A DNA stretch of 64,000 nt from Nibricoccus sp. Its GTDB lineage: Bacteria; Verrucomicrobiota; Verrucomicrobiia; Opitutales; Opitutaceae. The first letter of the stretch is position 1. Each line of letters opens with the position of its first letter. Shown here piece by piece: positions 737 through 42,444 of this stretch. The stretch covers positions 4,768,001 through 4,832,000 of the forward strand of contig JASGHG010000001.1 of assembly GCA_047602425.1 (NCBI GenBank), written 5' to 3'. The position numbers and the translations under genes were made by a program. Below the pieces are notes generated by a model. That model was given only the letters and a program-made list of their open reading frames with translations. It ran no database searches and had not been told where the DNA came from.

Positions 737-1828
737 TTAAAGTTTCGTCGGATCGAGCACCACGTGTTTGATGCGTTTGCGATCCCAGGTGTAAGTGATG
801 TGGATTTTACCGTCAGCAGCTTGAATCACGGCCGGGTAAGCGTAGCCGGAAGTGCATGGTTCGGTCTCGAGCGTGATAATACGTTTCCACGACAGGCCGT
901 CGCTGGAGATCGCGACGTCGAGCGGATAACGGTTGCCTTTCGCCTCGTCGATGCGGTGCGCGGAATGATTATAAACAAGCAACTGGCGGCCATCAGCCAA
1001 TGTGACGGCGTCTGTACCTGAATTCGGGTTTGGCAGTTCGGCGGCGGTGAGTGCGGTCCAAGTCTTGCCGCCGTCTTTTGACCAGGTTTGTGCGATTACG
1101 CCTTGCTTGGTGCGGCACACGGCCTGCAGACGCCCGTCCTTATGAAACAGCACGCTGGGCTGGATGGCATCGAACTTCGGTCCTCCCTTGGATACGGGGC
1201 CGATTTTCTCCCAGGTTTTACCCGCGTCGCGTGAGAGCTCGAAATGCACGAGCCAGCCGCCGTCAAATTCGCCCTTGTCCGTTTTTTTCTCCGGATTTCC
1301 CTCGGTGCTCGTGGGAGACAACCACGCGCCATCGGCCAACTCCACGGCCTTGTTTTTGATCGGACCGAGAATACCGTCCGGCAGGCGTGTGGGTTTGCTC
1401 CAGGTTTTACCACCATCGAGCGAAGTCATCATAAGGCCCCACCATTCGCGCGGATTCGGACCGACTTTGTAGAAAAGAACGAGCGGACCATTCTTCGGTT
1501 GGAACAAGACGGGGTTCCAGGTCGGCAAGCGTTTGCCGTCAGGTTGCACGCCATTCGCGACTTCCACGCCCTCGGTCCATTTGCCGTTTTCAAGCCGCGA
1601 AACGTAAATGCAGACATCGGGATTTCGTTCCTTGGTACCGCCGAACCACGCTGCCACCAAGTGGCTATCCGTAGTCTCAGCCATCGTCGAGGCATGACAT
1701 TCTGGATAAGGACCTTTTTCGTAGATAAACTCGGACGACAGAATGGCTGGGTGTTGAGAGGCCGTATCGGCCTTTGCCAGCAAAACGGCGAACAGCAGAA
1801 TAAATGAAATATGACGAAAAACGCTCAT
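737..1828 (-). CDS. Secreted sialidase-fold (GH33-like, BNR/Asp-box) hydrolase; candidate Kdo hydrolase
   Basis: Signal peptide; Asp-boxes SLDGGKTW, SRDAGKTW, SKDGGKTW, SSDGLSW; C-terminal YAYP motif. Confidence 0.85.
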   Translation of the reverse strand: MSVFRHISFILLFAVLLAKADTASQHPAILSSEFIYEKGPYPECHASTMAETTDSHLVAAWFGGTKERNPDVCIYVSRLENGKWTEGVEVANGVQPDGKRLPTWNPVLFQPKNGPLVLFYKVGPNPREWWGLMMTSLDGGKTWSKPTRLPDGILGPIKNKAVELADGAWLSPTSTEGNPEKKTDKGEFDGGWLVHFELSRDAGKTWEKIGPVSKGGPKFDAIQPSVLFHKDGRLQAVCRTKQGVIAQTWSKDGGKTWTALTAAELPNPNSGTDAVTLADGRQLLVYNHSAHRIDEAKGNRYPLDVAISSDGLSWKRIITLETEPCTSGYAYPAVIQAADGKIHITYTWDRKRIKHVVLDPTKL

Positions 1829-1834
1829 GGAAAA

Positions 1835-3119
1835 TTAGGTGTTGGATGCAGCTACAGAACGACGTGAATGCATAAAAGCAGCAGCTAAAAGAAGCAACGC
1901 ACCAACGATATAAATGGCACCACCAAACGCGATTGCTTCACTCATGTTGTCGACGGCCTTTTCATGACGGCCGTACTTCGTTGCGAGGCCCACAAAGAGC
2001 GGTCCTAGCGCACCGCCACCCCAGCCGATCGTATTCATGATTCCGGACCGCCGTGCCTCGAGCCCTCGGCTCGATTACGTCATAGAGCGAAGCAAAGATT
2101 CCCGAATCGTAAAACCCCTTGCAAACACCAAAGGCGGTCATCGACAGAATCAACGTCAACGTGCTGTTCGTGCTGCCCACCAGGAAAACAAAAATCGCGC
2201 CAAGAACTAAACCGCCCGCCTGCACCAACATGCGTCCTGAAGTAAAACGCTTCCCCATCTTATCCGCCAGCCACCCGGCAAAGGGCACGATCAAAGCACT
2301 GGCCAGATGCACATAAACCGTGCCCGTCAGCCCGGCCGTACCGATTGAGTAATGAAATTTGTCGACGAGAAATTTGGGCGTCCAGGTAAGAAAAATGACA
2401 GCGATAAAGTTCGCACAAAGAAAACCTCCCATGAGAAGCATCGCCGAAGGTGTGCGAAAAATGACTCCGAGCGTGCGCCCGATTGACATTTGTTCTTCCC
2501 GATAGATTCGGTAATCCAACGTCTGTGCGGAACGACCGGAACCTTGCCCACGCTCGGGTTCATGCACGAATTTCACCAAGATGCCTGCAAGTACGACGCC
2601 GATTGGACCGAACCAATAAAATGGAACACGCCAACCTGCCCGCTCAGCCAATTCCGCCGCCATCCAACTGCCAAGGATTGTGCCCGCGTAAACAGACGAC
2701 TGATGCCATGAGAGTGCGCGGGAACGCGTCTCTTTGTCATGATAATCGCTGAGAAGCGACATGGCCGATGGGAAATAAAACGTCTCCCCCAACCCGGTCA
2801 GCGCCCGAACAATAATCAACGAAATGAGTCCATTGCACCAACCCGTGGCCAGGGTGAAAAAACTCCAGGCAACACAAGCGATCACGATCAGCCATTTTCG
2901 TGAGAAACGATCCGCCGCGATGCCGGCAATCGGAGCGCCAGCGGCATAGACCCAGGCAAAGGCCGAACCGATCCAGCCCAACTGAACGTCGTCGAATTTA
3001 AATTCGCGTCCCAGCAACGAGAGCACCGAGCTGATGGCCTGGCGGTCTGCGTAATTGAAAAAGCAGACAAACCAGAGCATACCAACAATCGTCCATTTGT
3101 AGTTCTTGTTCATGAGCAT
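1835..3119 (-). pseudogene. MFS sugar-acid transporter split by a one-base frameshift near 2045 (pseudogene or assembly error)
   Basis: ORF 1962..3119 has MFS motifs (NYADRQ, GIAADRFSRK). Removing one base at cga ggc acg gcg gtc (c) gga atc atg aat joins it to ORF 1835..2038 (RGTAVGIMNTIGWGGG...) and restores the last two TM helices. Confidence 0.75.
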
Positions 3120-3139
3120 GCTCTGGTGGTTGCAATGGT

Positions 3140-4084
3140 TCAGGCGCGGGATTTTTTGCGAGCCTTGGGCGCTGCCCCTGGGGCCTCAAGCCCCCACTCG
3201 GCGAATTTTTTCCGCAGGTCGGCCACAACACCAGCGTAGATTTTCCGGGTGGCATCGGAGACGATCATCTTCGGCGTGCCGACCTCGAAGCCGCGAGCTT
3301 CGACGCCCGCGGTGCAATTGATGGTAAAGGTCAATCGATCGACAATCGCTCCGACTTCGCGCATGCGGGTTGCGGTCGGTTCCAGGCGGCCAGGCTGGCT
3401 CTTGCGATAGACATTAAACTGCTCAACCATCAGCTCTGGAACAATGTTAACCAGTCCACCGATGCAACCGGCAGCGCCGAGTTTAAACACCTCGGGCAAG
3501 CGCGTGTCTGCGCCGGAGAAAACCGAGAAGTTTTTTTCGCGACCGAGACGGATCAGCTCGGTGTGGTAGCCGAATTCACCGCCGCTCTGCTTGATCGCCG
3601 CCATCGGGTGGCGATCGGCGAATTTCGCAATCGTGTCGAGCCCGATGCGGTTGCAGGTGAGCTCAGGGAAATTGTAGAGCATGACCGGCAGTTGGGCGGC
3701 TTCAGCGGCATATTCGAAATGCGCCAGTTGATCGGCAGTGGAGCACGGAAAGAAATTTGGCGGCATGATTCCGACGCCCGGCAATTTCAAACGTCGGGCA
3801 AAACGTCCGAGCTCAGCCACCACGCGTGGATTGATGTCGCTAATGTTCGCGATGACCGGAAGCGGCGCGGCGAGTTCAGCCACGGTTTCCAGCACTTCCT
3901 TGCGTTGCTCCACGTTTAAGCGGGGAAACTCCCCGGTGCTGCCCAGCGCGAGAACGCCGTGAATGCCTTTGGAGCGCAGCCAGGTCAAATGCGTGGCGAG
4001 CGCGCGTTTCATGAGCTTGCCGTTTGCATCCGTCGGGATGGTAAGCGCAGCTAAAATTCCCTCAGTAGGAAATGCGTTTTTCAT
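3140..4084 (-). CDS. DapA/NanA-family (DHDPS-like) class I aldolase; candidate Kdo aldolase
   Basis: GSTGE, LYNFP and IKQS (Schiff-base Lys) motifs; neighbours are GH33 and MFS genes. Confidence 0.85.
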   Translation of the reverse strand: MKNAFPTEGILAALTIPTDANGKLMKRALATHLTWLRSKGIHGVLALGSTGEFPRLNVEQRKEVLETVAELAAPLPVIANISDINPRVVAELGRFARRLKLPGVGIMPPNFFPCSTADQLAHFEYAAEAAQLPVMLYNFPELTCNRIGLDTIAKFADRHPMAAIKQSGGEFGYHTELIRLGREKNFSVFSGADTRLPEVFKLGAAGCIGGLVNIVPELMVEQFNVYRKSQPGRLEPTATRMREVGAIVDRLTFTINCTAGVEARGFEVGTPKMIVSDATRKIYAGVVADLRKKFAEWGLEAPGAAPKARKKSRA

Positions 4085-9700: not shown

Positions 9701-9818
9701 CTTTGTCGTGCGAAATGAGCGGAGGCAGCTGCTCCGCGTGTAACGAAACAATAGCTAGCGCCAGAGCGGCGAAAAGGAGTCTAAGGGGGAGTTTTTTGCG
9801 CGTAACCTTCATGAGCAC
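6777..9818 (-). CDS. Secreted pectin-lyase-like beta-helix plus DUF6298-like protein
   Basis: Signal peptide; VPDFSHAGYAGG, DNTARIQAALD, GAVLLKKGRY, SGVVLRGEG beta-helix start; C-terminal HYGLWYERRRMDHERIRR domain. Confidence 0.7.
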   Translation of the reverse strand: MLMKVTRKKLPLRLLFAALALAIVSLHAEQLPPLISHDKDSGKLKYSADDEGSLVPDFSHAGYAGGGVALPIVPVKFILAPEVGDNTARIQAALDRLAGLPIDETGFRGAVLLKKGRYEIEGQLRIKASGVVLRGEGQGADGTVLVATGTDRRALILVRGKNDLVIRPSVAVDDKKVSVGSVEIHVKNQQNLKSGDTVLISRPATAEWIKALGMHISPGRQQFAWKPQAMTIVWERTIVSVKAGAVTLEAPLTTALDEKYGGGTVSLFSWPGRLTKIGVENVRCESTFDPANPLDEQHAWEAVAFDHVRDAWAANITALHFAGSVINLGSGASRVTVQDCESLAPVSELGGYRRHTFTTAGQQTLFLRCRSQEGRADFCTGNLAAGPNVFLECIAIDTHGASGSVGSWASGSLFDNVSIDGGTLALDNRETWNQGVGWAAANSMLWQCSASVVVCRKPPTAQNWADGVWGQFVGDGRWSMVNEFVKPDSLYRAQLEERRGAKGIAALAPRTYPTFNDDALQAATRKTIEDELLAAVQKPKNDKPLALRNGWLTANGALLTGRQADVAWWRGYLVSGREDTKPSITRFAPGLIGPEYTDDLDEMTDNMLTARSPDDKLNAGQVAVRQHYGLWYERRRMDHERIRRPDADVWPPFFEQPFARSGQGRAFDGLSKYDLTKYNPWYFGRLREFAALGRRKGLVLINAMYFQHNILEAGAHWVDFPWRPTNCLQPTGFTEPPPFDGDTVKMAAEFYDLSNPLRRDLHRRYIRHCLEALSDEPNVIHHLSAENSGPLHFMQFWLDVVAEWEQETGKHPLIALSACKDVQDAVLADARRASVIDVIDLKYWFRTEKGAEFAPSGGTDLAPRQHERLWKKGRPNPATIADMVAEYRIRFPEKAIISGLDEADGWAFVAAGGSFAKLPRTTDPRLLTALAKMKPVETRQKNWRQLSGDESQSFIYTFGEGSVKLDLRSVKGSVAIREIDLKTGAVASERTTAGQIEITGNKHPAAFWITPIP

Positions 9819-11374
9819 TACGGCAGACGCACATTGATGGGGCCAAGTTGCTTGCGATGCGCGATCTTTTTGCCGTTTACGAAAATCGTCAGACCTTTTC
9901 CCTGTCCAAAGTGTTTTCCGTCACGATCCCAAACGATCGCCAGGTCCCGTCCGTGATACCGAACGCCATCGAGGCAAAACCAATTCCAAGTTCCGGCGGG
10001 CAGCAGTGGCTGAAGGTCAATCACATCGTCGGCGCGAGGGCGCAACCCGACAATCCCCGTGATGAGGAGATCGGCGTAGGTCGAGTGGTTGTAGTAGCGG
10101 CTGCGCGGGTCCGGGCCCTTGAGCCACTTGCCGTTTACTTCGTCGAGGTATTCGCCGATATAGGGCTTGCCATCGTACCGATGCGAACGTGTGTACGTGA
10201 TAAACGCGTCGAAATAATCTTTGTTGGTTACGGCATCCTGCTTGTAGTCGCGCAGTACGTTGGCGAGCGCGGTCAACGTTTGGGAGGTGGCGAAGGGCCA
10301 GACCGCGCCGTCCCACTCGCAGGTGCCAACACCGTGCGAACGAAACTGCGGATGACGACGTTCCGCCGTGGTGATGCCGAAGGGCGCGCGAAATCCCTTC
10401 TCGTCGGTGAACTGCGTCCACGCCGCCTCATATCCTTTGCCGGTTGCAGGCAGTTCGAAATACCACGGGATAAAACCAATTTGCTCACGCACGTCCGCCA
10501 GGACGCCGTCTTCACGTCGGACTTCGAAAAACTTTGCCTCGGGGTGCCAGAGTTTTTCCTGCGTGAGGCGGCGAAGGTCGGCGGCTTTGCGATCGAATTC
10601 GGCGGCCACGTCCGCCTTGCCGGCCACGCGTGCGATGGTGGCGAGCGCCCATGCGTTGCCATACATGTAGGAGTTTAGCGGTGGACGAAGGTTTTTGGTT
10701 TTGCGCCCGCCGCTGATGGATTCCTCCATCGCATCCCAAACGTCGTGCTGCCAGAAAAGACCGGACTCCGTCAGCTTTTCACTTTCCCACCGTCGATAAT
10801 CCGCGACGAGGTCGTCGAAAAGTCCGGTCAGCGTCGCGGTGTCCTGGGTGACAAGCCAGCGCTGCCAAACCGCATATTGGAGCCACTGGCTGTATTTATG
10901 AAGATGGCCCTGCGGCTTGCCGCCTTCAACGCCCCGCAGCCAGTACAGCAAGTAGTCATCGTGGAAGCTCTGGTCGCGCAACCACCGGCCTTCCATCAAA
11001 TGGTGGCCCAGCGCGCTGCTCACCGGTCGCGGCTTCGTGAGAAATTCCGTGAAAACATGGCGTCTGCTGGTTGGTTCGACTCGGAGATGTTTGCGCAACG
11101 CCCACCAACGATACCAGTAGATCTCTTCCACGTCCGCGTCTTCGCAGGTAAAGTACGGAACGCGCGTCTGCAACCAGGCCCATGCCTCGGCGTTCGGGAC
11201 GAGGTTGGCGACCGGCTCGTCCTCCATCGTATTGAATTTCTCGATATGGTGGGCGAACCCATCGGCCTTCAAAACAGCGTACGGCGACTTTGGTTCGGAA
11301 TCCGCACCGCGAGCGAAGAGGCCACAGAAAATCGGCAGGCAGGCGATCAAGACGGTGACGACGCGTCGGGGCAT
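9818..11374 (-). CDS. Secreted six-hairpin glycosidase, GH142-like (beta-L-arabinofuranosidase candidate)
   Basis: Likely ATG 11374 with signal peptide; FNTMEDE..PNAEAW..EEIYWYRWWALRKH, DAMEESISG, CEWDGAVWPFATSQT, YYNHSTY. By recollection resembles the C-terminal domain of B. thetaiotaomicron BT1020. Confidence 0.7.
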   Translation of the reverse strand: MPRRVVTVLIACLPIFCGLFARGADSEPKSPYAVLKADGFAHHIEKFNTMEDEPVANLVPNAEAWAWLQTRVPYFTCEDADVEEIYWYRWWALRKHLRVEPTSRRHVFTEFLTKPRPVSSALGHHLMEGRWLRDQSFHDDYLLYWLRGVEGGKPQGHLHKYSQWLQYAVWQRWLVTQDTATLTGLFDDLVADYRRWESEKLTESGLFWQHDVWDAMEESISGGRKTKNLRPPLNSYMYGNAWALATIARVAGKADVAAEFDRKAADLRRLTQEKLWHPEAKFFEVRREDGVLADVREQIGFIPWYFELPATGKGYEAAWTQFTDEKGFRAPFGITTAERRHPQFRSHGVGTCEWDGAVWPFATSQTLTALANVLRDYKQDAVTNKDYFDAFITYTRSHRYDGKPYIGEYLDEVNGKWLKGPDPRSRYYNHSTYADLLITGIVGLRPRADDVIDLQPLLPAGTWNWFCLDGVRYHGRDLAIVWDRDGKHFGQGKGLTIFVNGKKIAHRKQLGPINVRLP

Positions 11375-11758
11375 AGGGTTAAGAATTGCCCGACGTCCGA
11401 TCGGCGCAAGACGCGATAAGACGAAAAGAGGGCGAGCAAATGGTTGCGGTCCGGTGAAAGGGAATGCGGGACAGAATTCTTGCTGATGATTCAAAAAACA
11501 TCGCAGGCATATTCGGAGATATCTGGAAGCGAAATTTTGCTGTTTAAAAGTGAAGTCTAGATCATCCAAACAAAGGGGGGCCGATGCACCCACGCACCGA
11601 CCCCCTACCCCAAGCAGACCGACTTTCGCCGAACTGCTTTCTTACCATTTGTATGAAAAACACGCTTTTCAGACAGACGCCTGGCAGCAGAGCTTTACCA
11701 CATACAAAATGAAATTGTCTGGCTTCGAAACAAAGGGCACGAAGGGGACTGCCCACTG

Positions 11759-11917
11759 TTTCATATGAAATAAACTAAAAAGCGTTATGTTTCATGAAAT
11801 GTTTAAGTCAAGTTCATTTAGATTTCTGGCGATGCGATGAAAATCCGCGCAACAGGTCGCTTCAACTCCGCCTTGACAAGGGGCTGTCATCATGGAAATA
11901 AGACTATTTCATGAATT
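11759..11917. promoter_or_regulatory. Putative operator palindromes in the divergent promoter region
   Basis: TTTCATATGAAA 11759-11770, TTTCATGAAA 11790-11799 and TTTCATGAAT 11907-11916 in AT-rich intergenic DNA. Confidence 0.6.
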
Positions 11918-11983: not shown

Positions 11984-13102
11984 ATGAATTCTGCGCAGTC
12001 CGCCCCAAAGACGATGCCCAAAAAGAATAAAGTGACCATCACCGATGTCGCGAAAGCGGCCGGGGTCGCGGTCGGTACGGTTTCACGGGTGTTGAACAAT
12101 CACACTGATGTAAACGCGACGATTCGTGCGAAAGTATGGGAGGTGGCGCGACGGCTGAACTACTCGCGTATCCGCCAACGCAGTACACGCAAGGACGACA
12201 GCTCCGGTGAGCAGAAATCCGGGACGATCGCGGCGATTTTCTTCGGCATGGAAGACACGCTGGTGCAGCTCCCGGTCGTTAGCGCGGCGTTGCAAGGCAT
12301 CGAAGGCGCCCTCTCCTCGCAAGGCCGCAGCCTGATGCTCGCAAATATTCCGAAAGCCGATCGCGTGCCGCCGTTTCTCCTCGAAAACGATGTCACCGGA
12401 TTGATTCTCAAAGGACCAAACCAAGGCGAACTTCCTCCTCTTGAGCAGAGCGATTTATTGCAGCATATCTATCGGTTCCCCCACGTGTGGCTGATGGGCC
12501 GCTTGGGCAACGCCAAAGGCGATCACGCCAACTTCGATACCGAAACTGCGGGCAAGCTGGCCGCGGAACATTTTTTCCGCAACGGTCACACGCGTGTCGC
12601 GTTTCTGAATCCCAAGCCTGGCCAAACCCAATTCGAAAAATTGCGCAACGGATTCTACGCGGCGACCTCCCGCTTCGGCCAGACCATGACGTTTTTGGAG
12701 GCATCGCCTCGCGAAAGTTTTGAATGGCCGCTGCCGGCGATCACGAGTGCAGATACGGTCAGCCTGTTGGTGGATCGCTGGGCGGCGATGGACGCGGCGT
12801 CCCGCCCCACGGGCATTTTTGTGCCAGCCGACCGGACAGCCGTTCAGCTTTATACCGTTCTCCAAGGTCGCGGGCTGCAAATTGGCCGCGATGTCAGTGT
12901 CATTTCGTGCAATAACGAGCGCCCGCACCTGATGAATCTCCATCCATCGGTGACGACGATCGAAGTTCACGCGGAAGCCGTGGGCCGGCGCGCCGTCGAT
13001 CAATTGCTTTGGCGTATCCGCCATCCGGAGGACAGCAACTCCACCCAAGTACTCGTCGAGCCTACTTTGGTCGAGGGCGATTCAGTCGCCGATCTCACGT
13101 AA
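11984..13102 (+). CDS. LacI-family transcriptional regulator
   Basis: VTITDVAKAAGVAVGTVSRVLN HTH followed by a periplasmic-binding-type sensor domain. Start may be 12014. Confidence 0.93.
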   Translation: MNSAQSAPKTMPKKNKVTITDVAKAAGVAVGTVSRVLNNHTDVNATIRAKVWEVARRLNYSRIRQRSTRKDDSSGEQKSGTIAAIFFGMEDTLVQLPVVSAALQGIEGALSSQGRSLMLANIPKADRVPPFLLENDVTGLILKGPNQGELPPLEQSDLLQHIYRFPHVWLMGRLGNAKGDHANFDTETAGKLAAEHFFRNGHTRVAFLNPKPGQTQFEKLRNGFYAATSRFGQTMTFLEASPRESFEWPLPAITSADTVSLLVDRWAAMDAASRPTGIFVPADRTAVQLYTVLQGRGLQIGRDVSVISCNNERPHLMNLHPSVTTIEVHAEAVGRRAVDQLLWRIRHPEDSNSTQVLVEPTLVEGDSVADLT

Positions 13103-13148: not shown

Positions 13149-13260
13149 TTTCATGAAACAGGCTGCGCTAACATGCGATTTTTAGCGTTCTTGCGCGGTT
13201 TTACCGTGCCCCTCTTTCTTTCATTATGAAATAATATTATTGACCACTTGTTTCATGAAC
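13149..13260. promoter_or_regulatory. Putative operator palindromes upstream of the catabolic operon
   Basis: TTTCATGAAA 13149-13158, TTTCATTATGAAA 13219-13231 and TTTCATGAAC 13251-13260. Confidence 0.6.
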
Positions 13261-13314: not shown

Positions 13315-14481
13315 ATGCCCGCCGAATCGATGCGACCCATCACCTTGCTTCAGCCGCCGCGAATCGCGTTTGGCGCCGGTTGCGCGACGGGGTGTATAGA
13401 CGAGATTGCTGCACGGAGCCTGCGTAAGATTCTGTTGCTCACCACACCGCCGGTCGCGCCTCACGCCAAACCATTGGTGGAAGGACTCGCCGGGAAAAAC
13501 ATTCTCGTCACGACGCTGATCGATGTGCCGCCGGAACCCGGCGTGAAGGATTTCGAACGCATTCTCCTTGAAGCGCGCAAATTTTCCCCGGACGGAGTCA
13601 TCGGTTTTGGCGGTGGCAGCGTGTTGGATATCGCCAAGCTTGTCGCCGCGCTTCACGACTGCGCCGAACCGGTGCAGAACTTTTTTGGCATCGGCCTGCT
13701 GCCGCGTCGCAATACCTACCTGGCCTGCCTCCCGACGACGGCCGGAACCGGCAGTGAGGTTTCGCCAAATGCCATCCTCCTTGACGAAGCCGAGCAATTG
13801 AAGAAAGGCGTGATCAGCCCGTGGCTCGTGCCGGATTCTGCGTTTGTCGACCCGTTGTTCACGCTGTCTGTGCCACCTGCCGTGACCGCCGCGACCGGTA
13901 TCGATGCAATGGTGCATTGCATCGAAGCGTACGCCAACCGTTTCGCCCACCCAATTGTCGATGCCTACGCGCTGGAGGGCATTCGGCTCATCTCAGCTAA
14001 CCTTTTAACTGCGGTAAAAGACGGCCTCAACGTTTCGGCCCGCTCCGGCGTTGCCCTCGGGAGCCTCTATGGTGGCCTGTGCCTGGGGCCGGTCAACACC
14101 GCGGCTGTTCACGCCCTCGCCTATCCGCTGGGCAGCGAATTTCATATCGCTCACGGGCTCTCGAACGCCCTGCTGCTCGCTCCCGTCTTGCGTTTCAATT
14201 TACCGGCGGCGCCCGAACGTTATGTGGCGATCGCAGTCGCGCTCGGCGTGAAAAAGCAAAAAACCGATCTCGCGACCGCCGAGGCCGGCATTGCTCACAT
14301 CGAGAAACTCTGCGCCGACTGCGGCGTGCCGCGCGGCATTGCGGCTCTCAACATTCCCGAGTCTGCCCTTCCTCGCATGGCCGCTGCCGCTATGAAGGTC
14401 ACCCGTCTCCTCAAAAACAATCCGCGCGAACTCGTCCTCGCCGATGCCGAGGCCATCTACCGTCAGGCCTATCCAGCATGA
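13315..14481 (+). CDS. Iron-containing alcohol dehydrogenase
   Basis: GGGSVLDIAK, PTTAGTGSE, GIDAMVHCIEAY, VHALAY..HIAHG motifs. Start placed at ATG 13315. Confidence 0.92.
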   Translation: MPAESMRPITLLQPPRIAFGAGCATGCIDEIAARSLRKILLLTTPPVAPHAKPLVEGLAGKNILVTTLIDVPPEPGVKDFERILLEARKFSPDGVIGFGGGSVLDIAKLVAALHDCAEPVQNFFGIGLLPRRNTYLACLPTTAGTGSEVSPNAILLDEAEQLKKGVISPWLVPDSAFVDPLFTLSVPPAVTAATGIDAMVHCIEAYANRFAHPIVDAYALEGIRLISANLLTAVKDGLNVSARSGVALGSLYGGLCLGPVNTAAVHALAYPLGSEFHIAHGLSNALLLAPVLRFNLPAAPERYVAIAVALGVKKQKTDLATAEAGIAHIEKLCADCGVPRGIAALNIPESALPRMAAAAMKVTRLLKNNPRELVLADAEAIYRQAYPA

Positions 14482-15383
14482 TTCAACAAGGTAAACATAA
14501 CGGCGTCATCGTCCCGCTCGTCACGCCCTTCACCGCCCAAGGCGAAATCGACGAAGCTGCGACCGCCCGCATCATCAATCATTGCGCCGAAGCCGGCGTG
14601 CATGTCTTCGTGCTCGGCACAACCGGCGAAGCCGCATCAATCGCCACCGCCAAACGCGTTCGTTTGATCAATGCCTCCGTCACCGCCGCCGCGGGCCGAA
14701 TCAAAGTCTACGCCGGCATCGGAGACAACTGCCCGGAAAATTCCATTGCCGCGGCCAACGAATACCTGCGCCTCGGCGCCGACGCCGTCGTTGCGCATCT
14801 GCCCGCTTATTACGCGCTCAAGCCCGCTGAAATGCAGGCGTTCTTCGAACTGCTTTCCTCGCAGATCCGCGGAAGCCTGATGCTTTATAATATCCCCTCG
14901 ACGACGCACATGTCGCTCCCCCTCGACATCGCCGAGCATCTCAGCCATTTGCCCAACGTCATTGGATTTAAGGATTCTGAAAATGCACCTGGCCGCCCCG
15001 AGGAAACGGCTCGCCGACTCAGCGACCGGGCCAACTTTTCCATTTTCATGGGAGCCGCCGTGCTCTCGGCCAAGGCGCTGAAACTTGGTTTCGACGGCCT
15101 TGTTCCCAGCTCGGGCAATCTCGTGCCGCAACTCTGGCGCGAACTCTACGACCAGGCTCGCGCTGGCAATTGGGAAAAAGCCGAAGCTCTCCAATCGCGG
15201 CTCAATACCATCGCGCAAGTCTTTCAGCGTAACCGCAGCCTCGGCGAATCCCTCGCCGCGTTGAAAGCGATGATGGACACCCACGGTCTTTGCGGCCCAA
15301 CGGTGCTTCCGCCGTTGCGTACGCTCGACGCCGCCGCCCGCCAGAGCGTCACAGCCGAGTTGGCCGCCCTCAATCTCGCCTGA
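14478..15383 (+). CDS. DapA/NanA-family class I aldolase; candidate Dha aldolase
   Basis: ATGA overlap with the ADH stop; GTTGE, LYNIP, FKDS motifs. Confidence 0.88.
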   Translation: MIQQGKHNGVIVPLVTPFTAQGEIDEAATARIINHCAEAGVHVFVLGTTGEAASIATAKRVRLINASVTAAAGRIKVYAGIGDNCPENSIAAANEYLRLGADAVVAHLPAYYALKPAEMQAFFELLSSQIRGSLMLYNIPSTTHMSLPLDIAEHLSHLPNVIGFKDSENAPGRPEETARRLSDRANFSIFMGAAVLSAKALKLGFDGLVPSSGNLVPQLWRELYDQARAGNWEKAEALQSRLNTIAQVFQRNRSLGESLAALKAMMDTHGLCGPTVLPPLRTLDAAARQSVTAELAALNLA

Positions 15384-15392
15384 TTTTTCGCC

Positions 15393-16547
15393 ATGGCCGG
15401 ACCTTCCATCGCGGTTCTGGCGGACGATCTTACCGGCGCTGCCGAGATAGCCGCCATCGGCAAACGGCATGGACTTCCGTCCCGCATTTTTGCCAGCACC
15501 GCCCAAAGTCGTCCCTTTTCGGCCGGCCTGTCCGTGCACGATACCGACTCCCGCCTGTTAACCGCTGCCAAGGCGGCGGAACGCGTGACAGCGACAGCGG
15601 CCTCGCTTGGCGATGCGGATACGGCGTTTATTTTTAAGAAAACCGACTCCGTTCTCCGCGGCAACGTCGTGGCCGAAATTGTCGCGTTCGCCCGCGCCAC
15701 CGGCAAACGACGCATTTTACTCGTGCCCGCCAATCCATCGCTTGGTCGAACTATTTCGAAGGGACAATATTTCGTTCAAGAAGTGCCGATTGCTGAAACG
15801 AATTTTGCCCGCGATCCGCATCATCCTGCGAAATCCTCCAGCATCGTCGAATTGCTCGGCCCTTCGCCGGATTGGCCGGTGAGCGTCCTGGCTTCCGGAG
15901 CCCCGCTGCCTGAACAGGGAATCATCGTCGGTGAAACAACAACTTCGGCTGACGTCGCCCATTGGGCCGCCCACCTCGATCGCGACACGCTGGCGGCAGG
16001 TGGCGCGGACTTTTTCCAAGCGTGCCTCAAGCAGTTCGGTCTCGCACCGAAACCAACGAGCATACCTAAGTCTCCTGGACTTGTTTTGATTGTCACCGGG
16101 TCGCTTACGCCCGCCCGGGAAACGCTTCTGGCCCATGCTTCTTCTGTTGGCTGGCCGGTGCATACAATTGCTGGAGATTTCGCCGCCTTAAGGCGCACAT
16201 TCGAAATGAGCAGCATCATCCTAGTGCAGAGTCCGAAAACCGCAGTCAACGACCAGGCCTTGGGAGCGCGTCTTCGCGCAGATTTTGGCGAACTCGTTCG
16301 CAGACTGCGCTCTCAAGTTTCCCTTGGACAGGTCGTGGTCGAGGGCGGAGCCACCGCGGCGGCCATCAGCGAAGCCAATGGCTGGACAAGTTTCGACGTC
16401 GCGGGCGAATGGGCCCCCGGCGTCATTGCATTGCACCCGACGGCCGCTCCAGAAATTCTTTTTACCATCAAACCGGGCAGTTACACTTGGCCGGAAAATC
16501 TTTGGCGCCAACTCGACAGCTGCCGCGTTTCCTTCTCAAAATCTTAA
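15393..16547 (+). CDS. Four-carbon acid sugar kinase (DUF1537 family, DtnK/DenK-like)
   Basis: LADDLTGAAE, TDSR, FKKTDSVLRGN, EGGATA, KPGS motifs; followed by a PdxA homolog. Confidence 0.88.
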   Translation: MAGPSIAVLADDLTGAAEIAAIGKRHGLPSRIFASTAQSRPFSAGLSVHDTDSRLLTAAKAAERVTATAASLGDADTAFIFKKTDSVLRGNVVAEIVAFARATGKRRILLVPANPSLGRTISKGQYFVQEVPIAETNFARDPHHPAKSSSIVELLGPSPDWPVSVLASGAPLPEQGIIVGETTTSADVAHWAAHLDRDTLAAGGADFFQACLKQFGLAPKPTSIPKSPGLVLIVTGSLTPARETLLAHASSVGWPVHTIAGDFAALRRTFEMSSIILVQSPKTAVNDQALGARLRADFGELVRRLRSQVSLGQVVVEGGATAAAISEANGWTSFDVAGEWAPGVIALHPTAAPEILFTIKPGSYTWPENLWRQLDSCRVSFSKS

Positions 16548-16553
16548 TACGTC

Positions 16554-17573
16554 ATGGCCGCCTCCTCCGACGCACTCCCCCCCATTCTCGCGATCACCCT
16601 GGGCGATCCTGCAGGAACCGGACCAGAACTTATCTCCAAAGCCGTCACCCTGCCCGAGGTCCGCGCGATCTGTCGTCCGCTCGTGGTCGGCGATGCCGCC
16701 GTGCTCGCCGCGGCGCTACGTTACACGGGCGTCCTGCTCAAAATAAACGCCATTGCCGACGTCGGTGCCGGACAATTTGCGGCGGATTCCGTCGATGTCC
16801 TCGACCTCAAAAACGTGAATCTCGATCAGCTTCAAATCGGCAAAGTTTCGGCCATGGCCGGAAAAGCCGCGTATGAAGCGGTGAAAACCGCTGCCGAACT
16901 AGCTCTCGCCGGTAAAGTGGGCGCGATCGTCACCTCGGCGCTCAATAAAGCTGCAATGAATTTGGCGGGCTACCATTTCGACGGCCACACCGGCTTGCTC
17001 GCCGAGGTCTGCAAGTCTCCTGGAGCCACGATGATGCTCGCCGCCGACAAACTTCGCGTCAGTCACGTCTCGACGCATGTGCCTTTGCGCGTCGCGGTCG
17101 ACCGCGTTCGTCCTGAGCGCATCATGAAGGTTCTGCGCCTGACCAATGACGCGATTAAAAATCTTGGCGTCGCCAAACCCCGGATTGCCGTCGCCGGTCT
17201 CAATCCGCATGCGGGCGAAAACGGCCTTTTTGGCGATGAGGAACAAAAATATATCACTCCCGCCATCGAGGAAGCGCGTCGCGAAGGCATTGACGCTTCC
17301 GGGCCGTACGCCGGCGACACGATTTTCTTCCGCTGCGCCCAAGGCGAGTTCGATGCCGGCGTCGCCATGTACCACGACCAAGGCCACGTCGCCGCGAAAA
17401 TGCTCGGCATTTGGCGCGGCGTGAACGTTACGCTCGGCCTGCCGATCATTCGAACGTCCGTCGAGCACGGCACGGATTTCGCCAACGCGGGCACCGGTCG
17501 TGGCGATCCACGCAGTCTCATCGAAGCGATCAAACTCGCCGCCACCATGGCCCGAAACCGTATCAAGAACTAA
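16554..17573 (+). CDS. pdxA: PdxA-family dehydrogenase (PdxA2, D-threonate/D-erythronate 4-phosphate dehydrogenase-like)
   Basis: GDPAGTGPE, GHT, GLNPHAGE, MYHDQG, RTSVEHGT motifs. Confidence 0.9.
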   Translation: MAASSDALPPILAITLGDPAGTGPELISKAVTLPEVRAICRPLVVGDAAVLAAALRYTGVLLKINAIADVGAGQFAADSVDVLDLKNVNLDQLQIGKVSAMAGKAAYEAVKTAAELALAGKVGAIVTSALNKAAMNLAGYHFDGHTGLLAEVCKSPGATMMLAADKLRVSHVSTHVPLRVAVDRVRPERIMKVLRLTNDAIKNLGVAKPRIAVAGLNPHAGENGLFGDEEQKYITPAIEEARREGIDASGPYAGDTIFFRCAQGEFDAGVAMYHDQGHVAAKMLGIWRGVNVTLGLPIIRTSVEHGTDFANAGTGRGDPRSLIEAIKLAATMARNRIKN

Positions 17574-17615
17574 TTTCCACTTCGCTCTCCAGCCTCAGCT
17601 TTCTCCCCGCGCCCC

Positions 17616-19151
17616 ATGTCCCTCCACACACTCGACTACGTCGTACTTGCGGCCTATGCGCTGCTCATTGTCGGTCTGAGCATTGCCGTCTCCCGTCGTA
17701 ACGAAAGCACCTCCGACTACTTCATCGCCGGGCGTGGACTCCCCGGTTGGGTGGTCGCGTTCACGCTGATGGGCACCATCATCGGCACCGGAACTTTCGT
17801 CGGGCATCCCGGCAACTCTTATCAAAAAGGACTGATCCTGCTCGTGCCGCATTTGATGCTGCCGTTGGTTCTATTGTTTGTTTCGAAAGTCATCGTGCCC
17901 TTTTACCGGCGCGTCGTGCGCATGAGTGCTTACGAGTACATTGGCTTGCGTTTCGGGTTGGGCGGCCGGCTTTATACTTCGTTCGGGTTTTTGGCTGACC
18001 GTATTTTCGACATCGGCGTTACACTCCTCACCACCGCTTACGCGGTCAACGTGCTGACGGGCTGGGAAATTCGCAATGTCATCTTCGGCGTTACGTTGTT
18101 TACCGCCGTTTACACGACAATCGGCGGCATCAAAGCCGTTGTTTGGACTGATGTTGCGCAGGGTACGATTTTGATTCTTGGCGGATCGTTCGTTTTGCTG
18201 CGTTTGCTTTTCGCTCCCGAAGCGGGAGCGCCTTTCGCTGTCGTCGGTGAAGCGTGGCGCGCAGGCCGCATGACTCTCGGCAATTGGGACTTTTCCTGGA
18301 AAAGCCTGTTCGAAACGCAGACGACGGCGTGGCTTTTCATCCTCACCTACATGATCCAGTGGGCGCGCCGCTACGTCACCGATCAGCACCTCGTGCAACG
18401 TTACCTTATTGCCCGCACCGACGCCGAGGCGAGCCGCGCGGTTTTTGCCGGGGCGTTGATCTGCGTGCCGGTGTTTTTTGTCTTCATGTTCATCGGTTCA
18501 TGCTTCTATGGGTTTTTCTCCATAACCAAGGCGCAGGTGCCAGAAATCGGTGACCACATCATGCCCTTCTTCATGATGAATTATCTCCCCGCCGGACTGC
18601 TTGGCCTGGTGTTTGCCGCCATCCTCGCCGCCGCGATGTCGACTGTCAGTTCCGACCTGAATAGTGTGGCGACTGTCGCCACGAGTGATTTCTTCGCGAA
18701 TATGTTTCCCAAGAGCAACGATCGCACGCGCTTGGTCTGCGGACGTTGCATGGTGCTCGTGGGCGGAGCGCTGGCAGCTGGTTCGGCTATTTTGCTGATT
18801 CCCGACAAAGGTTCCGCGCCCGTGATGGAACGTGCTGTCACCATCGCCGCCATTCTCTCGGGCGGCACCCTGGGGCTTTTCTGCCTCGGTTTTCTCACCC
18901 GCCGCGCAACTCGGCAAGGTTGCTATGTTGGCATGGCCTGCTGCGTTTTGTTCACCGCTTGGGCAATTCTGACTGAGCCAAGAGCGCGCATCCTGAACCT
19001 TCCGTTAAACTTCGAGATGAATCCAATCCTCATCGGACTTTTCGGACACCTCGTTCTTTTCGTTACCGGCTACATTGCCAGCCGTCTTCTCGGAGGTTAC
19101 CGTCCAGAAAACGTTGAGCAACTCACCATCCGCCATCGCCCGGCGGCCTAA
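17616..19151 (+). CDS. Sodium:solute symporter (SSS) family transporter
   Basis: DYFIAGRGLP, GGIKAVVWTDVAQ, DQHLVQRYL, AILAAAMST motifs; many TM helices. Confidence 0.92.
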   Translation: MSLHTLDYVVLAAYALLIVGLSIAVSRRNESTSDYFIAGRGLPGWVVAFTLMGTIIGTGTFVGHPGNSYQKGLILLVPHLMLPLVLLFVSKVIVPFYRRVVRMSAYEYIGLRFGLGGRLYTSFGFLADRIFDIGVTLLTTAYAVNVLTGWEIRNVIFGVTLFTAVYTTIGGIKAVVWTDVAQGTILILGGSFVLLRLLFAPEAGAPFAVVGEAWRAGRMTLGNWDFSWKSLFETQTTAWLFILTYMIQWARRYVTDQHLVQRYLIARTDAEASRAVFAGALICVPVFFVFMFIGSCFYGFFSITKAQVPEIGDHIMPFFMMNYLPAGLLGLVFAAILAAAMSTVSSDLNSVATVATSDFFANMFPKSNDRTRLVCGRCMVLVGGALAAGSAILLIPDKGSAPVMERAVTIAAILSGGTLGLFCLGFLTRRATRQGCYVGMACCVLFTAWAILTEPRARILNLPLNFEMNPILIGLFGHLVLFVTGYIASRLLGGYRPENVEQLTIRHRPAA

Positions 19152-19165
19152 ATACTCCGTCCGTC

Positions 19166-20986
19166 ATGACCTTGCGCCAAAATCATTTTCTTCTATTTGC
19201 CGGTTTGGCCATCGCAGCCACAGCCCTCGCGGATACTTCGAAGCCGCCGCCACCGCTCGTATGTCGCGATTTGCCAGCCATCACCACCGCAGCCGACGGC
19301 GGTCTGCGCCCCGTGGTTGGCGTGCAAAATATCCAAGTCGTGCGCTCCAACCGTACCAGTTCTCCCCATGCCGACGGCCTGCTGCACAGCTATCTGCATC
19401 AACCGATGCTGGCGTATTGGAAAGGTAAATACTACCTCGAATACCTGAGTGGCCCGCGCAGTGAACACGAATTTCCCTGCGTAACCTCTCTCACCACATC
19501 GACCGACGGCTATCGGTGGGAAAAACCACGCGTCGTTTTTCCCGCGATCAAATTGCCCGACGGTCGCGAAACGGTCGCCCATCAACGCATGGGTTTCTAT
19601 GTCGCGCCCGAAGGACGCCTGCTCGTGCTCTCCTTTTACGGCATCCCGCCTGAACCCAACGACGGCACCGGAATCGGTCGCGCCGTGCGTGAGATTCTCG
19701 CCGATGGCTCCTTCGGGCCGATCTATTTCATACGCCTAAATGCCAAACAACATTTTCCTGAATTCAAGCCGCCTTATCCGCTTTACACCGCGTCGACCGA
19801 CGCCGGCTTTGTCGCGGCGTGCAATGCGCTGCTCGCCAACAAACTCATGACCGCCCAATGGTGGGAGGAAGACCAGCTCGACGAAAGCGGATTTTATACC
19901 ATCAAAGGCAAAGCGCTTTCGTACATTCATCGTCCTGACGGTTCTGTCCTCGGCGTCTGGAAAAATGCCCTCGTCGCCACCACGCACGATGCTGGCCAAA
20001 CCTGGACCGAGAAGCAATTTGCCACCAATCTTCCCAATAACGCGTCCAAATACTGGCTCCAAAAAACGGGCGATGACCGTTTCGCGCTTTTCCTAAACCC
20101 GACCAATCGCCAACGCCTGCCGCTCGCCGTCACGACCAGTGCGGATTGCGCAAACTTTACAGGTCTGCTGGCCATTCACGGCGAACTTCCCGATCAGCGT
20201 TTTCCCGGCAAATACAAAAACCTCGGCCCTCAATACGTTCGCGGCATCGTCGAGGGCAACGGCATTCCGCCCGATTCCGCCAAAGCCACTTGGGTGACCT
20301 ATAGCGTCAACAAGGAGGATATTTGGATCAGCCGTGTACCAACGCCCATCGTCGCCGCCGTTGATCAGCCGGTGCATGAGGATTTTGAAAAGACCGCCGC
20401 TGGCGCCCTTCCCGTCGACTGGAACATCTATAGCCCGCTTTGGGCTCCCGTTTCCGTGGTCGAAACAAATTCTCCCGCCAAACATGCCTTGGAACTCCGC
20501 GACGAAGACCCGTGCGACTACGCGCGCGCCGTTTGTGTTTTTCCCGAAACCCATGGCTTGAAGGCTTCCTTCAAAGTGCTTCCACGTCAGACAAACGCCC
20601 GCTTCGAAATCGAACTGGCCTCCGCTAACGGCGCGCGCCCGTTTTTGATCGCTCTCGGCGAAGATGGACACCTTTGGGCCAATCACGAAGGGGTATGGAA
20701 TGACAACGGCGCGTATACTGCCGGCCGATGGATCTCCTTTGAACTAGCAGCCAACGCCAAGACCGCCTCTGATCGCATCGCTCTTAAAATCGATGGCAAG
20801 CCTGCCAAACCAGGCGAAATCGGCCCGGCCGAGGCTGCCGCTACTGTTGAACGCCTGTCGTTCCGTACCGGCGCCTTCCGCTATCGCGGTGACGGCAAAG
20901 GCTACGATCTCCCTAACGCCGACATCAAAGTCCCAGCCGCATCCTTCCTGATCGACGACGTTCACCTCGAACCCGTCCGCGAATAG
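19166..20986 (+). CDS. Secreted GH143-like hydrolase (Dha, 3-deoxy-D-lyxo-heptulosarate, hydrolase candidate)
   Basis: Signal peptide; GVQNIQVVRSNR, YLHQPMLAYW, HQRMGFY, PNDGTGIGRAVREI..GPIYFIR, GPQYVRGI, YSVNKEDIW. By recollection resembles the N-terminal domain of BT1020. Confidence 0.72.
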   Translation: MTLRQNHFLLFAGLAIAATALADTSKPPPPLVCRDLPAITTAADGGLRPVVGVQNIQVVRSNRTSSPHADGLLHSYLHQPMLAYWKGKYYLEYLSGPRSEHEFPCVTSLTTSTDGYRWEKPRVVFPAIKLPDGRETVAHQRMGFYVAPEGRLLVLSFYGIPPEPNDGTGIGRAVREILADGSFGPIYFIRLNAKQHFPEFKPPYPLYTASTDAGFVAACNALLANKLMTAQWWEEDQLDESGFYTIKGKALSYIHRPDGSVLGVWKNALVATTHDAGQTWTEKQFATNLPNNASKYWLQKTGDDRFALFLNPTNRQRLPLAVTTSADCANFTGLLAIHGELPDQRFPGKYKNLGPQYVRGIVEGNGIPPDSAKATWVTYSVNKEDIWISRVPTPIVAAVDQPVHEDFEKTAAGALPVDWNIYSPLWAPVSVVETNSPAKHALELRDEDPCDYARAVCVFPETHGLKASFKVLPRQTNARFEIELASANGARPFLIALGEDGHLWANHEGVWNDNGAYTAGRWISFELAANAKTASDRIALKIDGKPAKPGEIGPAEAAATVERLSFRTGAFRYRGDGKGYDLPNADIKVPAASFLIDDVHLEPVRE

Positions 20987-28747: not shown

Positions 28748-29827
28748 ATGTGGAAATCCAACTGGTCCGAAACCCAACAACGCTTCAAGAAATGGTGGAA
28801 CCGTGACGGTCTGCTCGTCGGCATGTGGGGCGCGCCGGAGACCGCCGCCTGCATTCACGAACAAGTGGCCGCCCCCGTCGTTCCCGCAACCATCGACGAG
28901 CGCTATTGCGATCCCGCCTATCGCGCTGCGCAGAACCACTACCGCCTCTCGCGTTCGATTTTCCCGCTCGACGTTCTGCAGACCGCCAGCCCCGACCTCG
29001 GGCCCGGCACGCTGGCGATGTACTGCGGTTCCGAACCTGGTTTCGCCGAGGGCACCGTTTGGTTTAATCCCTGCATCGAACACGTTGAAAATCCTGAGGA
29101 GTTGCCTCCCATTCGCTTCAATCCGGAAAGCCATTGGTGGAAAACCACGGAAGCCATCCTGCGCCAATGTCAGGAAAAAGCGCGCGGCAAATACTTCGTT
29201 GGCTGTCCGGATTTGATCGAGAACATGGACATCCTTTCATCGCTGCGTGGTGCACAGACGCTGATGATGGACATGATCGAGCGTCCCGAGTGGATTGAGA
29301 AAAAAATCTGGGAGATCAATGCCGCCTACTTCGAGGCCTACCAGCGTATCTACGACATTATCAAACTTCCGGACGGCAGTTCCGTCTTCGATGCATTCTA
29401 CGTTTGGGGACCAGGCAAAACCGCCAAACTTCAGTGCGACGCCTCCGCCATGTTCTCGCCCGACATGTACAAGCGATTCGTGGTGCCCGCGCTCACCGCT
29501 CAATGCGAGTGGCTCGACAATACCATCTATCACCTCGACGGCACGCAGGCCGTCTGCCACCTCGATACCTTGCTCTCTATCGAACCGCTCGACGCGATCG
29601 AATGGACGCCTCAGGCCGGCATCGAACCAGGCGGCAACAAGCGTTGGTACGACATGTACAAACGCATTCTCGCCGCCGGAAAATCCGTGCAAGTCGTCAA
29701 TGTCGAACTCAGCGACATCAAGCCGCTTCTCGACACGATCGGCACCAAGGGCGTCTACATTCTTATCCAATTCAAAGACCAAAAAGAAGCGGACCTCGCG
29801 TTGAAAATCCTGGAGCCCTACTACTAA
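28748..29827 (+). CDS. URO-D/MtaA-CmuA superfamily putative corrinoid-dependent methyltransferase
   Basis: DILSSLRGAQTLMMDMIERPE, QCDASAMFSPDMYKRFVVPAL, IYHLDG motifs; no signal peptide. Confidence 0.7.
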   Translation: MWKSNWSETQQRFKKWWNRDGLLVGMWGAPETAACIHEQVAAPVVPATIDERYCDPAYRAAQNHYRLSRSIFPLDVLQTASPDLGPGTLAMYCGSEPGFAEGTVWFNPCIEHVENPEELPPIRFNPESHWWKTTEAILRQCQEKARGKYFVGCPDLIENMDILSSLRGAQTLMMDMIERPEWIEKKIWEINAAYFEAYQRIYDIIKLPDGSSVFDAFYVWGPGKTAKLQCDASAMFSPDMYKRFVVPALTAQCEWLDNTIYHLDGTQAVCHLDTLLSIEPLDAIEWTPQAGIEPGGNKRWYDMYKRILAAGKSVQVVNVELSDIKPLLDTIGTKGVYILIQFKDQKEADLALKILEPYY

Positions 29828-37387: not shown

Positions 37388-37415
37388 GATCACGTTGCGC
37401 TAACGCAGCGTGATC
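37388..37415. terminator. Hairpin between convergent genes
   Basis: GATCACGTTGCG-CTAA-CGCAGCGTGATC, a 12-bp stem with one G-T pair. Confidence 0.5.
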
Positions 37416-38451: not shown

Positions 38452-38460
38452 AATAACGCC

Positions 38461-39102: not shown

Positions 39103-39182
39103 GGAAACCATCTTACCCAACTCATCCGCGGAATTCTTGTGCTTCCGGCGGATTCTTTTGTGCTCGTGTGCGGCAAAAACGA

Positions 39183-42284: not shown

Positions 42285-42444
42285 GCTCGCACATTCAATA
42301 CAGATGGTGGTAACTCCACCAGAAAAATGGCGGTGACCAGTGACATTGCGACGCCCTTCCCGCCTCGGGACGGCAACCGTCCGACAAGGCTTAGATTTTT
42401 GCTGGCTTACCCCCCTTTGTCTGGGGTTAGTTGGAGGTGCTGGT

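Follow-up and report, generated by a model that had tools for sequence, protein, structure and literature searches.

The window analysed here is a stretch of 64,000 nucleotides from Nibricoccus sp. (Verrucomicrobiota; Opitutaceae; contig JASGHG010000001.1 of assembly GCA_047602425.1, positions 4,768,001 to 4,832,000). [quoted passage not shown] The probable route leads from Dha to pyruvate and D-threuronate, and then through D-threonate and 4-phospho-D-threonate to DHAP and CO2. It is built on the gene families, the active-site residues, the packing of the genes and their co-inheritance with the Dha hydrolase family GH143, all of which are directly observed. The families are known ones, and what would be new are two apparently undescribed activities, a Dha aldolase and a D-threuronate reductase. 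Among the papers listed by our literature search, with most subscription literature outside its scope, none gives an account of Dha catabolism, of a Dha aldolase or of a threuronate reductase.

All six genes claimed by a sequence-only reading of the window were recovered as open reading frames (ORFs) on the + strand, and Pfam agrees with the family of each. They encode an Fe-dependent alcohol dehydrogenase (Fe-ADH; 13315..14481; Pfam Fe-ADH and ADH_Fe_C), the proposed D-threuronate (D-tartrate semialdehyde) reductase; a class I pyruvate aldolase from a distinct clade of the DapA/NanA family (14478..15383; DHDPS), the proposed Dha aldolase; a DUF1537 acid-sugar kinase (15393..16547; SBD_N and NBD_C), the proposed D-threonate kinase; a PdxA2-like, decarboxylating 4-phospho-tetronate dehydrogenase (16554..17573; PdxA), closer to PdxA2 than to PdxA1 structures; a sodium:solute symporter (SSS; 17616..19151; SSF; TIGR00813 207/184), the proposed Dha importer; and a GH143 Dha hydrolase homologue with a signal-peptide-like N-terminal stretch (19166..20986). 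Here and below, scores against NCBIfam/TIGRFAM models are given as score/cut-off in bits. The intergenic gaps are -4, 9, 6, 42 and 14 bp, the first being an overlap of the Fe-ADH stop with the aldolase start. The Fe-ADH starts with the ATG at 13315; the upstream TTG at 13240 given by the ORF finder is unlikely, because a relative aligns from residue 1 at 83%. The tight packing noticed in the sequence-only reading stands for these six genes, but the unit is longer than was described and reaches 34820, with gaps of -8 to 6 bp. Its 3' part comprises two GH2 genes, an esterase, a 359-aa ORF (28748-29827, + strand) with no Pfam or NCBIfam match, a Gfo/Idh/MocA oxidoreductase, a GPH transporter and a GH31 gene.

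In the proposed pathway, exported GH142 and GH143 enzymes would free Dha, which the SSS symporter would bring into the cell. The class I aldolase would form a Schiff base through Lys165 and split Dha into pyruvate and D-threuronate, and the Fe-ADH would reduce D-threuronate to D-threonate with NAD(P)H. The DUF1537 kinase would phosphorylate D-threonate to 4-phospho-D-threonate, which PdxA2 would oxidise and decarboxylate to DHAP and CO2. The stereochemical argument for this order, put forward from the sequence alone, holds by Fischer bookkeeping: retro-aldol cleavage of D-lyxo Dha gives pyruvate and D-threuronate, and the latter gives D-threonate. The D-xylo form also leads to D-threuronate, and the D-arabino or D-ribo form to L-erythronate. 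For the last two steps, passages of PMC10971088 and PMC9997740 describe DtnK (DUF1537) as a D-threonate kinase and PdxA2 as a catabolic paralogue.

The assignment of 19166..20986 to GH143 in the sequence-only reading was confirmed. The one PDB match of the protein is 5MQR, over residues 39-607 (E 1.3e-116), and PF24067 (E 1e-82), PF22585 and the Pfam family Beta-prop_BT_1020 are found in it. Homology extends over the N-terminal propeller of BT1020 and the beta-sandwich that follows, and residues Y357, E234, E235 and E384, all shared with BT1020, do not vary among 13 homologues. A passage of PMC6811678 describes a Tyr-Glu nucleophilic pair in GH143. According to parts of PMC13501991 and PMC6811678, the N-terminus of BT1020 is the GH143 Dha hydrolase and its C-terminus a GH142 arabinofuranosidase that acts first; GH142 takes off the arabinofuranose capping Dha (PMC6811678, in part). 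Here the GH142 half, a beta-L-arabinofuranosidase homologue, is a divergent gene (9818..11593, - strand; 5MQR residues 615-1097, E 2.6e-164). In a crude hydropathy scan, the N-terminus of GH143 is hydrophobic as in the other hydrolases, and that of the four enzymes less so. Further genes of the same locus encode a GH140-like apiosidase, a DUF6298 protein, a GH43 and a GH2 that matches a BT0996-type model. Another encodes a BNR sialidase, which has 53% identity to the C-terminal domain of a GH78-BNR fusion with the architecture of BT1013. The locus is an RG-II locus, and from homology and this context the GH143 of the unit is predicted to hydrolyse the Dha linkage of RG-II chain D.

The aldolase has the marks of the DHDPS/NanA class I superfamily, namely a TIM barrel, a Schiff-base Lys, a GxTGE motif and two Tyr, and keeps GTTGE 47-51, Y111, Y137 and K165. 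Its AlphaFold model (predicted local distance difference test, pLDDT, 94) has a template modelling score of about 0.9 to NanA/DHDPS folds, with at most 31% identity among the matches listed. It misses the models for dapA (TIGR00674, 152/206), NanA (103/281), 2-keto-3-deoxygluconate (KDG) aldolase (95/390) and KdgD (93/278). At the site of the substrate Arg of DapA it has T142; we take this site to be that of the Arg binding aspartate semialdehyde. A role as DapA (4-hydroxy-tetrahydrodipicolinate, HTPA, synthase) was rejected, given the failed cut-off, Thr142 in place of Arg and a true DapA elsewhere in the genome (355/206). With a 23-sequence profile, the scores of 141 distinct DapA-like locus sequences leave a gap between 351 and 255 bits. 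The 100 sequences above the gap form one clade with support 0.908 in a tree of 140 sequences (one weak one was dropped), and the clade has its own conserved residues, T142, E168, R173, P210-S211 and Q250. The best solved match is PDB 4XKY, a 'DHDPS' of B. thetaiotaomicron; its 31% identity is the level of the broader group at 200-255 bits, and it was discarded as an orthologue. We infer that the aldolase cleaves Dha, a step unprecedented as far as our literature searches reach.

The Fe-ADH has the family's GGGS at 99 and its Asp/His/His/His metal site (D197, H201, H266 and H280). Other Fe-ADHs reduce succinate semialdehyde to 4-hydroxybutyrate, which parallels the reduction of D-threuronate. 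The enzyme is a putative D-threuronate reductase, and the same literature searches give no precedent for this step. The kinase has the two domains of DUF1537 (SBD_N and NBD_C) with the motifs ADDxTG, KKxDS and EGGxT; it stays below the OtnK model (NF043035, 67/350) and has no OiaK (NF042436) match at E<=1e-5. It adjoins PdxA2, and both genes are present in 56 of 80 aldolase loci (see below); its partner is PdxA-like, not a RuBisCO-like or aldolase-type decarboxylase. It would work like DtnK, and we do not count it as a member of that family. The dehydrogenase has the PdxA fold with His metal ligands and is nearer to PdxA2: it scores 296 bits with 2HI1 and 269 with 6E85 ('D-threonate 4-phosphate dehydrogenase'), and 183-198 with PdxA1 chains. 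It does not reach the PdxA2 model NF002891 (319 vs 583). The symporter matches 5NV9 best in the PDB (E 1e-49), which we take to be the sialic-acid transporter SiaT; relatives swap it for other SSS types (36-38%, 53-60% and 74-77% identity). Alternative roles of these families are covered elsewhere in the genome by a canonical DapA, a second PdxA homologue (G000:C1:1434552-1435433) and an apiose-type operon.

The suggested co-occurrence of the aldolase/Fe-ADH/DUF1537/PdxA set with GH143 was found among relatives, in 80 aldolase loci and in 301 Verrucomicrobiota genomes. The last survey comprised genomes at least 90% complete, this one (G000) included, and the aldolase clade was called above 330 bits, the next score being 253. 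The clade is present in 12 of the 301 genomes, each time with GH143 within 5 kb. GH143 itself occurs in 16, and none of the 285 GH143-negative genomes carries the clade. In five genera with mixed presence, the clade and GH143 match genome for genome. Fisher tests on such counts overstate the co-occurrence, as kin genomes are dependent. Among 60 relatives, 13 have GH143; eight of these hold all four enzyme genes beside it, and in two more a frame-split copy of the ADH-aldolase-PdxA genes lies at another place. A genome of 72% completeness carries the aldolase on a contig of 1.9 kb and gives no GH143 match.

The aldolase-anchored loci are those of the 80 best among 582 relatives of the aldolase that the species collection contains. 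Fe-ADH is present in 61 of them, DUF1537 in 63, PdxA2 in 58, all three in 51 and GH143 in 45; among the 49 loci of at least 15 kb, 38 have GH143. Outside Verrucomicrobiota, all three lower genes are found in 8 of 24 loci and GH143 in 5 of 24, and seven of ten genomes checked for GH143 have it (one, that of L084, already had it in the locus). In Bacteroidota, Chloroflexota, KSB1 and Acidobacteriota the aldolase stands in one locus with GH143; in Planctomycetota both occur in the same genomes. Among 300 Bacteroidota genomes, three of the four holders of the aldolase clade have GH143, compared with 10 of 300 overall. Gene order and SSS type vary, and in a 178-sequence tree the module stands beside GH143s of several branches, the BT1020-type included; therefore the link is with the product of the GH143 family, not with one inherited block. 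It is mostly one-way: the module implies GH143, and GH143 often occurs without the module, which would fit degraders that take Dha off but do not consume it. [quoted passage not shown]

Several observations weigh against the proposed pathway. First, the activities and substrates of all six proteins are predictions from sequence. The Fe-ADH is below every NCBIfam cut-off, lactaldehyde reductase (FucO, TIGR02638; 221.5/523) and 4-hydroxybutyrate dehydrogenase (194/500) included. The kinase is nearest to DtnK (NF047819), with only 127.5/450 and over the N-domain alone, and six orthologues score 101-123; no DenK model is among its matches, so that D-erythronate may be its substrate, and the kinase sequence cannot separate D-threonate from D-erythronate. 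The GH143 lies on another branch than the BT1020-type fusions (37-42% identity) in the 178-sequence tree. Second, 11 of the 12 Verrucomicrobiota positives belong to one family, and four are among the profile seeds. Third, GH143 occurs without the aldolase: three of the 13 GH143-bearing relatives have no aldolase match, and the clade is missing from 7 of 10 Bacteroidota holders of GH143 and from 12 of 13 in the family of G061. Among long metagenome loci, at least two module genes are present in 9 of 9 with close GH143s and in 0 of 12 with distant ones. Conversely, G067, G068, G069 and G254 have the module without a detected GH143. Other sialidase-like genes stand beside such a module in L104 and L234, and the GH143 profile finds no match in the BNR and unknown proteins next to modules that lack GH143 (L069, L104 and L234). 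Finally, all three lower genes are missing from 14 of the 80 aldolase loci, and GH143 was found in only 4 of 10 genomes of this kind that were searched. Two genomes, G664 and G665, have the aldolase with 6 and 11 GH143 matches, and searches of them found neither DUF1537 nor an Fe-ADH orthologue nor a Bll6730 homologue. The genomes in these counts are mostly metagenome-assembled, and in each genome the searches scored only so many candidates.

The strongest rival is a preference for a related ulosonic acid or for D-erythronate. The aldolase would then cleave another 2-keto-3-deoxy acid from sialidase-fold enzymes, such as an epimer or derivative of Dha or a 3-deoxy-heptulosonate, and the kinase and PdxA2 would act on D-erythronate or on both tetronates. 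Such a wider substrate range would fit the GH143-less modules of L104 and L234, which lie beside other BNR proteins and sulfatases, the expansion of GH143 to 6-11 matches in some genomes, and the distance of the kinase from characterised DtnK. We consider it unlikely, since the only GH143 of this genome sits with GH142 in the RG-II locus; a heptulosonate would yield an aldose needing oxidation, whereas Fe-ADHs typically reduce aldehydes; and a D-arabino heptulosarate would yield L-erythronate, which is not known to belong to the PdxA2 route.

It is improbable that apiose, aceric acid or free tetronates are what the kinase and PdxA2 act on, with a separate aldolase and ADH clustered with them through shared growth on RG-II. 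The GH140-like apiosidase in the locus speaks for this, DUF1537 includes the apiose-pathway kinase OiaK, and the module adjoins transketolase-type apiose genes in L101 and L230. Yet none of seven module kinases matches OiaK, whereas all four RuBisCO-like-linked kinases of RG-II degraders score 365-426 with it, and G132 and G320 hold both kinase types at separate sites. Moreover, the genome has its own apiose-type operon (L400 5920-15065; G000:C1:4877919-4887064), with a fucose-isomerase-like gene, a split transketolase, an FGGY kinase and an ABC transporter with DUF2291; a transketolase-type apiose pathway was reportedly described by Carter in 2018. The Fe-ADH and aldolase genes themselves overlap by 4 bp, and the four enzymes stand together in 51 of the 80 loci. 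As a separate observation, a RuBisCO-like OiaX, an OiaK-like kinase and a gene of the Asp/Glu-racemase family recur together in RG-II degraders (L242, L244, L246 and L250).

Rather improbable, too, is a split role in which the aldolase cleaves Dha, the Fe-ADH is a lactaldehyde reductase for RG-II rhamnose or fucose, and some other enzyme supplies the kinase from D-threuronate. RG-II does contain both sugars, lactaldehyde reductase is among the top Fe-ADH models (221 bits), and the search of L085, L101 and L105 found no Fe-ADH next to the module. That score, however, is far under 523 and near those of the 4-hydroxybutyrate and sulfoacetaldehyde reductase models; the Fe-ADH is co-inherited with the aldolase in 61 of 80 loci, and no rhamnose or fucose aldolase or kinase genes are among the annotated neighbours. 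A place of PdxA and DUF1537 in vitamin B6 synthesis or 4-hydroxythreonine salvage, and of the DapA-like gene in lysine synthesis, is very improbable: PdxA does pass TIGR00557 (351/290), a DUF1537 kinase phosphorylates 4-hydroxythreonine according to a passage of PMC10971088, and PdxA2 can do the PdxA reaction according to a passage of PMC9997740, but a canonical DapA and a second PdxA lie elsewhere in the genome, the aldolase fails the dapA cut-off, and the patchy, GH143-tied presence is unlike housekeeping genes.

Kdo is an unlikely substrate of the unit. Its cleavage yields arabinose, the tetronate kinase would be left unexplained, and the window has a second, unrelated aldolase and major facilitator superfamily (MFS) transporter by a BT1013-like sialidase. 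These genes, at 737-4084 (- strand) with a GH78 gene running off the window start, are a BT1013-like BNR sialidase, the MFS transporter and a second DapA-like aldolase, and form a candidate module for Kdo release, import and cleavage. The second aldolase type was seen elsewhere in three loci only (L379, L391 and L029); because it follows GH143 in L029, it may act also, or instead, on Dha. The broader DapA-like group at 200-255 bits occurs with SSS genes, in some cases with a BT1013-like sialidase, in Bacteroidota (L237, L238, L360, L361 and L364) and is a candidate second type of Kdo aldolase.

Returning to the proposed Dha pathway, a tentative but quite possible extension is that Dha catabolism is a branched, undescribed pathway of at least six phyla, in which D-threuronate is either reduced and passed to a DtnK/PdxA2-type pair, as in most genomes, or turned into D-tartrate by oxidation and then into oxaloacetate by dehydration, as in G660 and perhaps G029. 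By Fischer bookkeeping, oxidation of D-threuronate gives D-tartrate. One Acidobacteriota locus (L066 1348-10909, equal to G660:C13:73809-83361) has GH143, an aldehyde dehydrogenase, a Bll6730 homologue and the aldolase within 10 kb, together with a second enolase, a 2-hydroxyacid dehydrogenase and IclR. The best model of the aldehyde dehydrogenase is succinate-semialdehyde dehydrogenase (503/646), and the enolase is a close homologue of Bll6730 (2DW7, E 2.5e-152), which we take to be D-tartrate dehydratase. If Bll6730 is indeed that enzyme, this locus would reach the same D-threo C4 compound with another lower half. Passages of PMC4570537 and PMC5368075 name the D-tartrate dehydratase family, without the PDB entry of Bll6730. 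No Fe-ADH orthologue was found in G660 (best 32-37%). In 150 other Acidobacteriota genomes, the aldolase was found in none, GH143 in one and the Bll6730 homologue in two. A similar dehydrogenase-dehydratase pair near GH143 is present in L032. The evidence for this branch comes from two genomes, of which G660 carries 9 GH143 matches. A Bll6730 homologue is present in one of 10 aldolase-only genomes, and therefore the oxidative branch would be rare. G660, G664 and G665 (L322-L342) have 6-11 GH143 matches per genome, often in tandem, and the latter two also have SSS genes. The GH143-rich G664 and G665 point to glycans rich in Dha besides RG-II, or to a third branch. If the pathway is branched, both D-threonate and D-tartrate would arise naturally from Dha, and G664 and G665 may hide a third branch.

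A LacI-family gene (11984..13102, + strand; Pfam LacI and Peripla_BP_3) lies 212 bp upstream of the unit and is its probable controller. The palindrome TTTCAT(AT)GAA has three copies on each side of it, at 11759, 11790 and 11907 between GH142 and LacI (11759..11916) and at 13149, 13219 and 13251 immediately 5' of the Fe-ADH gene (13149..13260), as putative operator sites. The sites at 11759 and 11790 are kept about 31 bp apart in all four relatives examined, and the closest relative has two such sites at the same place 5' of Fe-ADH. With one mismatch allowed, the motif is not enriched across the window (10 matches vs 7.4 expected), and its support therefore comes from position and conservation. 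The sequence TTTCATGAAA occurs 21 times in the genome, and a LacI homologue is within 15 of the 80 aldolase loci. An RG-II regulon under LacI and the palindrome is likely. Elsewhere in the genome, three copies of the palindrome lie between a GH141 gene and a TonB-dependent receptor (L401 7488-8203; G000:C1:3531762-3532114). Near the long RG-II unit, at 37414-42617 (- strand), is a set of a uroporphyrinogen-decarboxylase (URO-D)-like methyltransferase, a corrinoid protein, a RACo activator and DUF1638; it possibly serves O-demethylation of methylated RG-II sugars, which is a guess. In L084 and L088 the aldolase, too, has corrinoid genes on its flanks. At 45356-46342 of the window an ORF of 328 aa is listed, but its translation on the + strand meets a stop.

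RG-II occurs in the walls of all vascular plants and is part of the diet, and its hydrolases are known, with no account found of the fate of the released Dha. The operon offers candidates for a Dha aldolase, a D-threuronate reductase and a Dha transporter, and plausibly a natural origin of D-threonate. By its patchy spread, the module would separate RG-II degraders that consume Dha from those that set it free for cross-feeding, and the aldolase could serve in a coupled Dha assay.

Two known systems bear on the two ends of the pathway: the catabolism of D-threonate and D-erythronate by DtnK/DenK and PdxA2, reportedly described by Zhang et al. in 2016 (PNAS 113:E4161), and the RG-II system of Bacteroides thetaiotaomicron with BT1020, reportedly described by Ndeh et al. 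in 2017. As in the former (passages of PMC10971088 and PMC9997740), a DUF1537 kinase stands by a PdxA2-like dehydrogenase and a transporter, and the proposed last two steps are identical. The kinase here, however, is shorter and divergent (127.5/450), and with the aldolase, Fe-ADH and GH143 added upstream, the tetronate would be made inside the cell and not imported. Both halves of BT1020 (parts of PMC13501991 and PMC6811678) are present here with other RG-II enzyme homologues, but they are split into two divergent genes, and GH143 is co-oriented with cytoplasmic catabolic genes. What these accounts cover, in the parts available, is Dha release, whereas a fate of Dha is proposed here. In oxidative apiose catabolism by OiaK/OiaX (NF042436, NF042437), a DUF1537 kinase is likewise found in RG-II degraders, but this one has no OiaK match and no RuBisCO-like partner, and both kinase types coexist in G132 and G320. 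Sialic acid and Kdo modules consist of a sialidase, an SSS transporter and a NanA-type lyase. The unit resembles them in its sialidase-fold hydrolase, its SSS matching 5NV9 best and its class I pyruvate aldolase, and differs in that the aldolase is of a separate clade (NanA model, 103/281) and cleavage would give, in place of an aldose, a C4 acid-aldehyde that has to be reduced. With 4-hydroxybutyrate dehydrogenase, sulfoacetaldehyde reductase and FucO, the Fe-ADH shares the fold, the metal ligands and the reduction of a short polar aldehyde, although it misses all their cut-offs and its proposed substrate is a dihydroxy acid semialdehyde. The last two steps would work like DtnK/PdxA2 and the first ones like GH143 with an import and cleavage module of the sialic-acid type.

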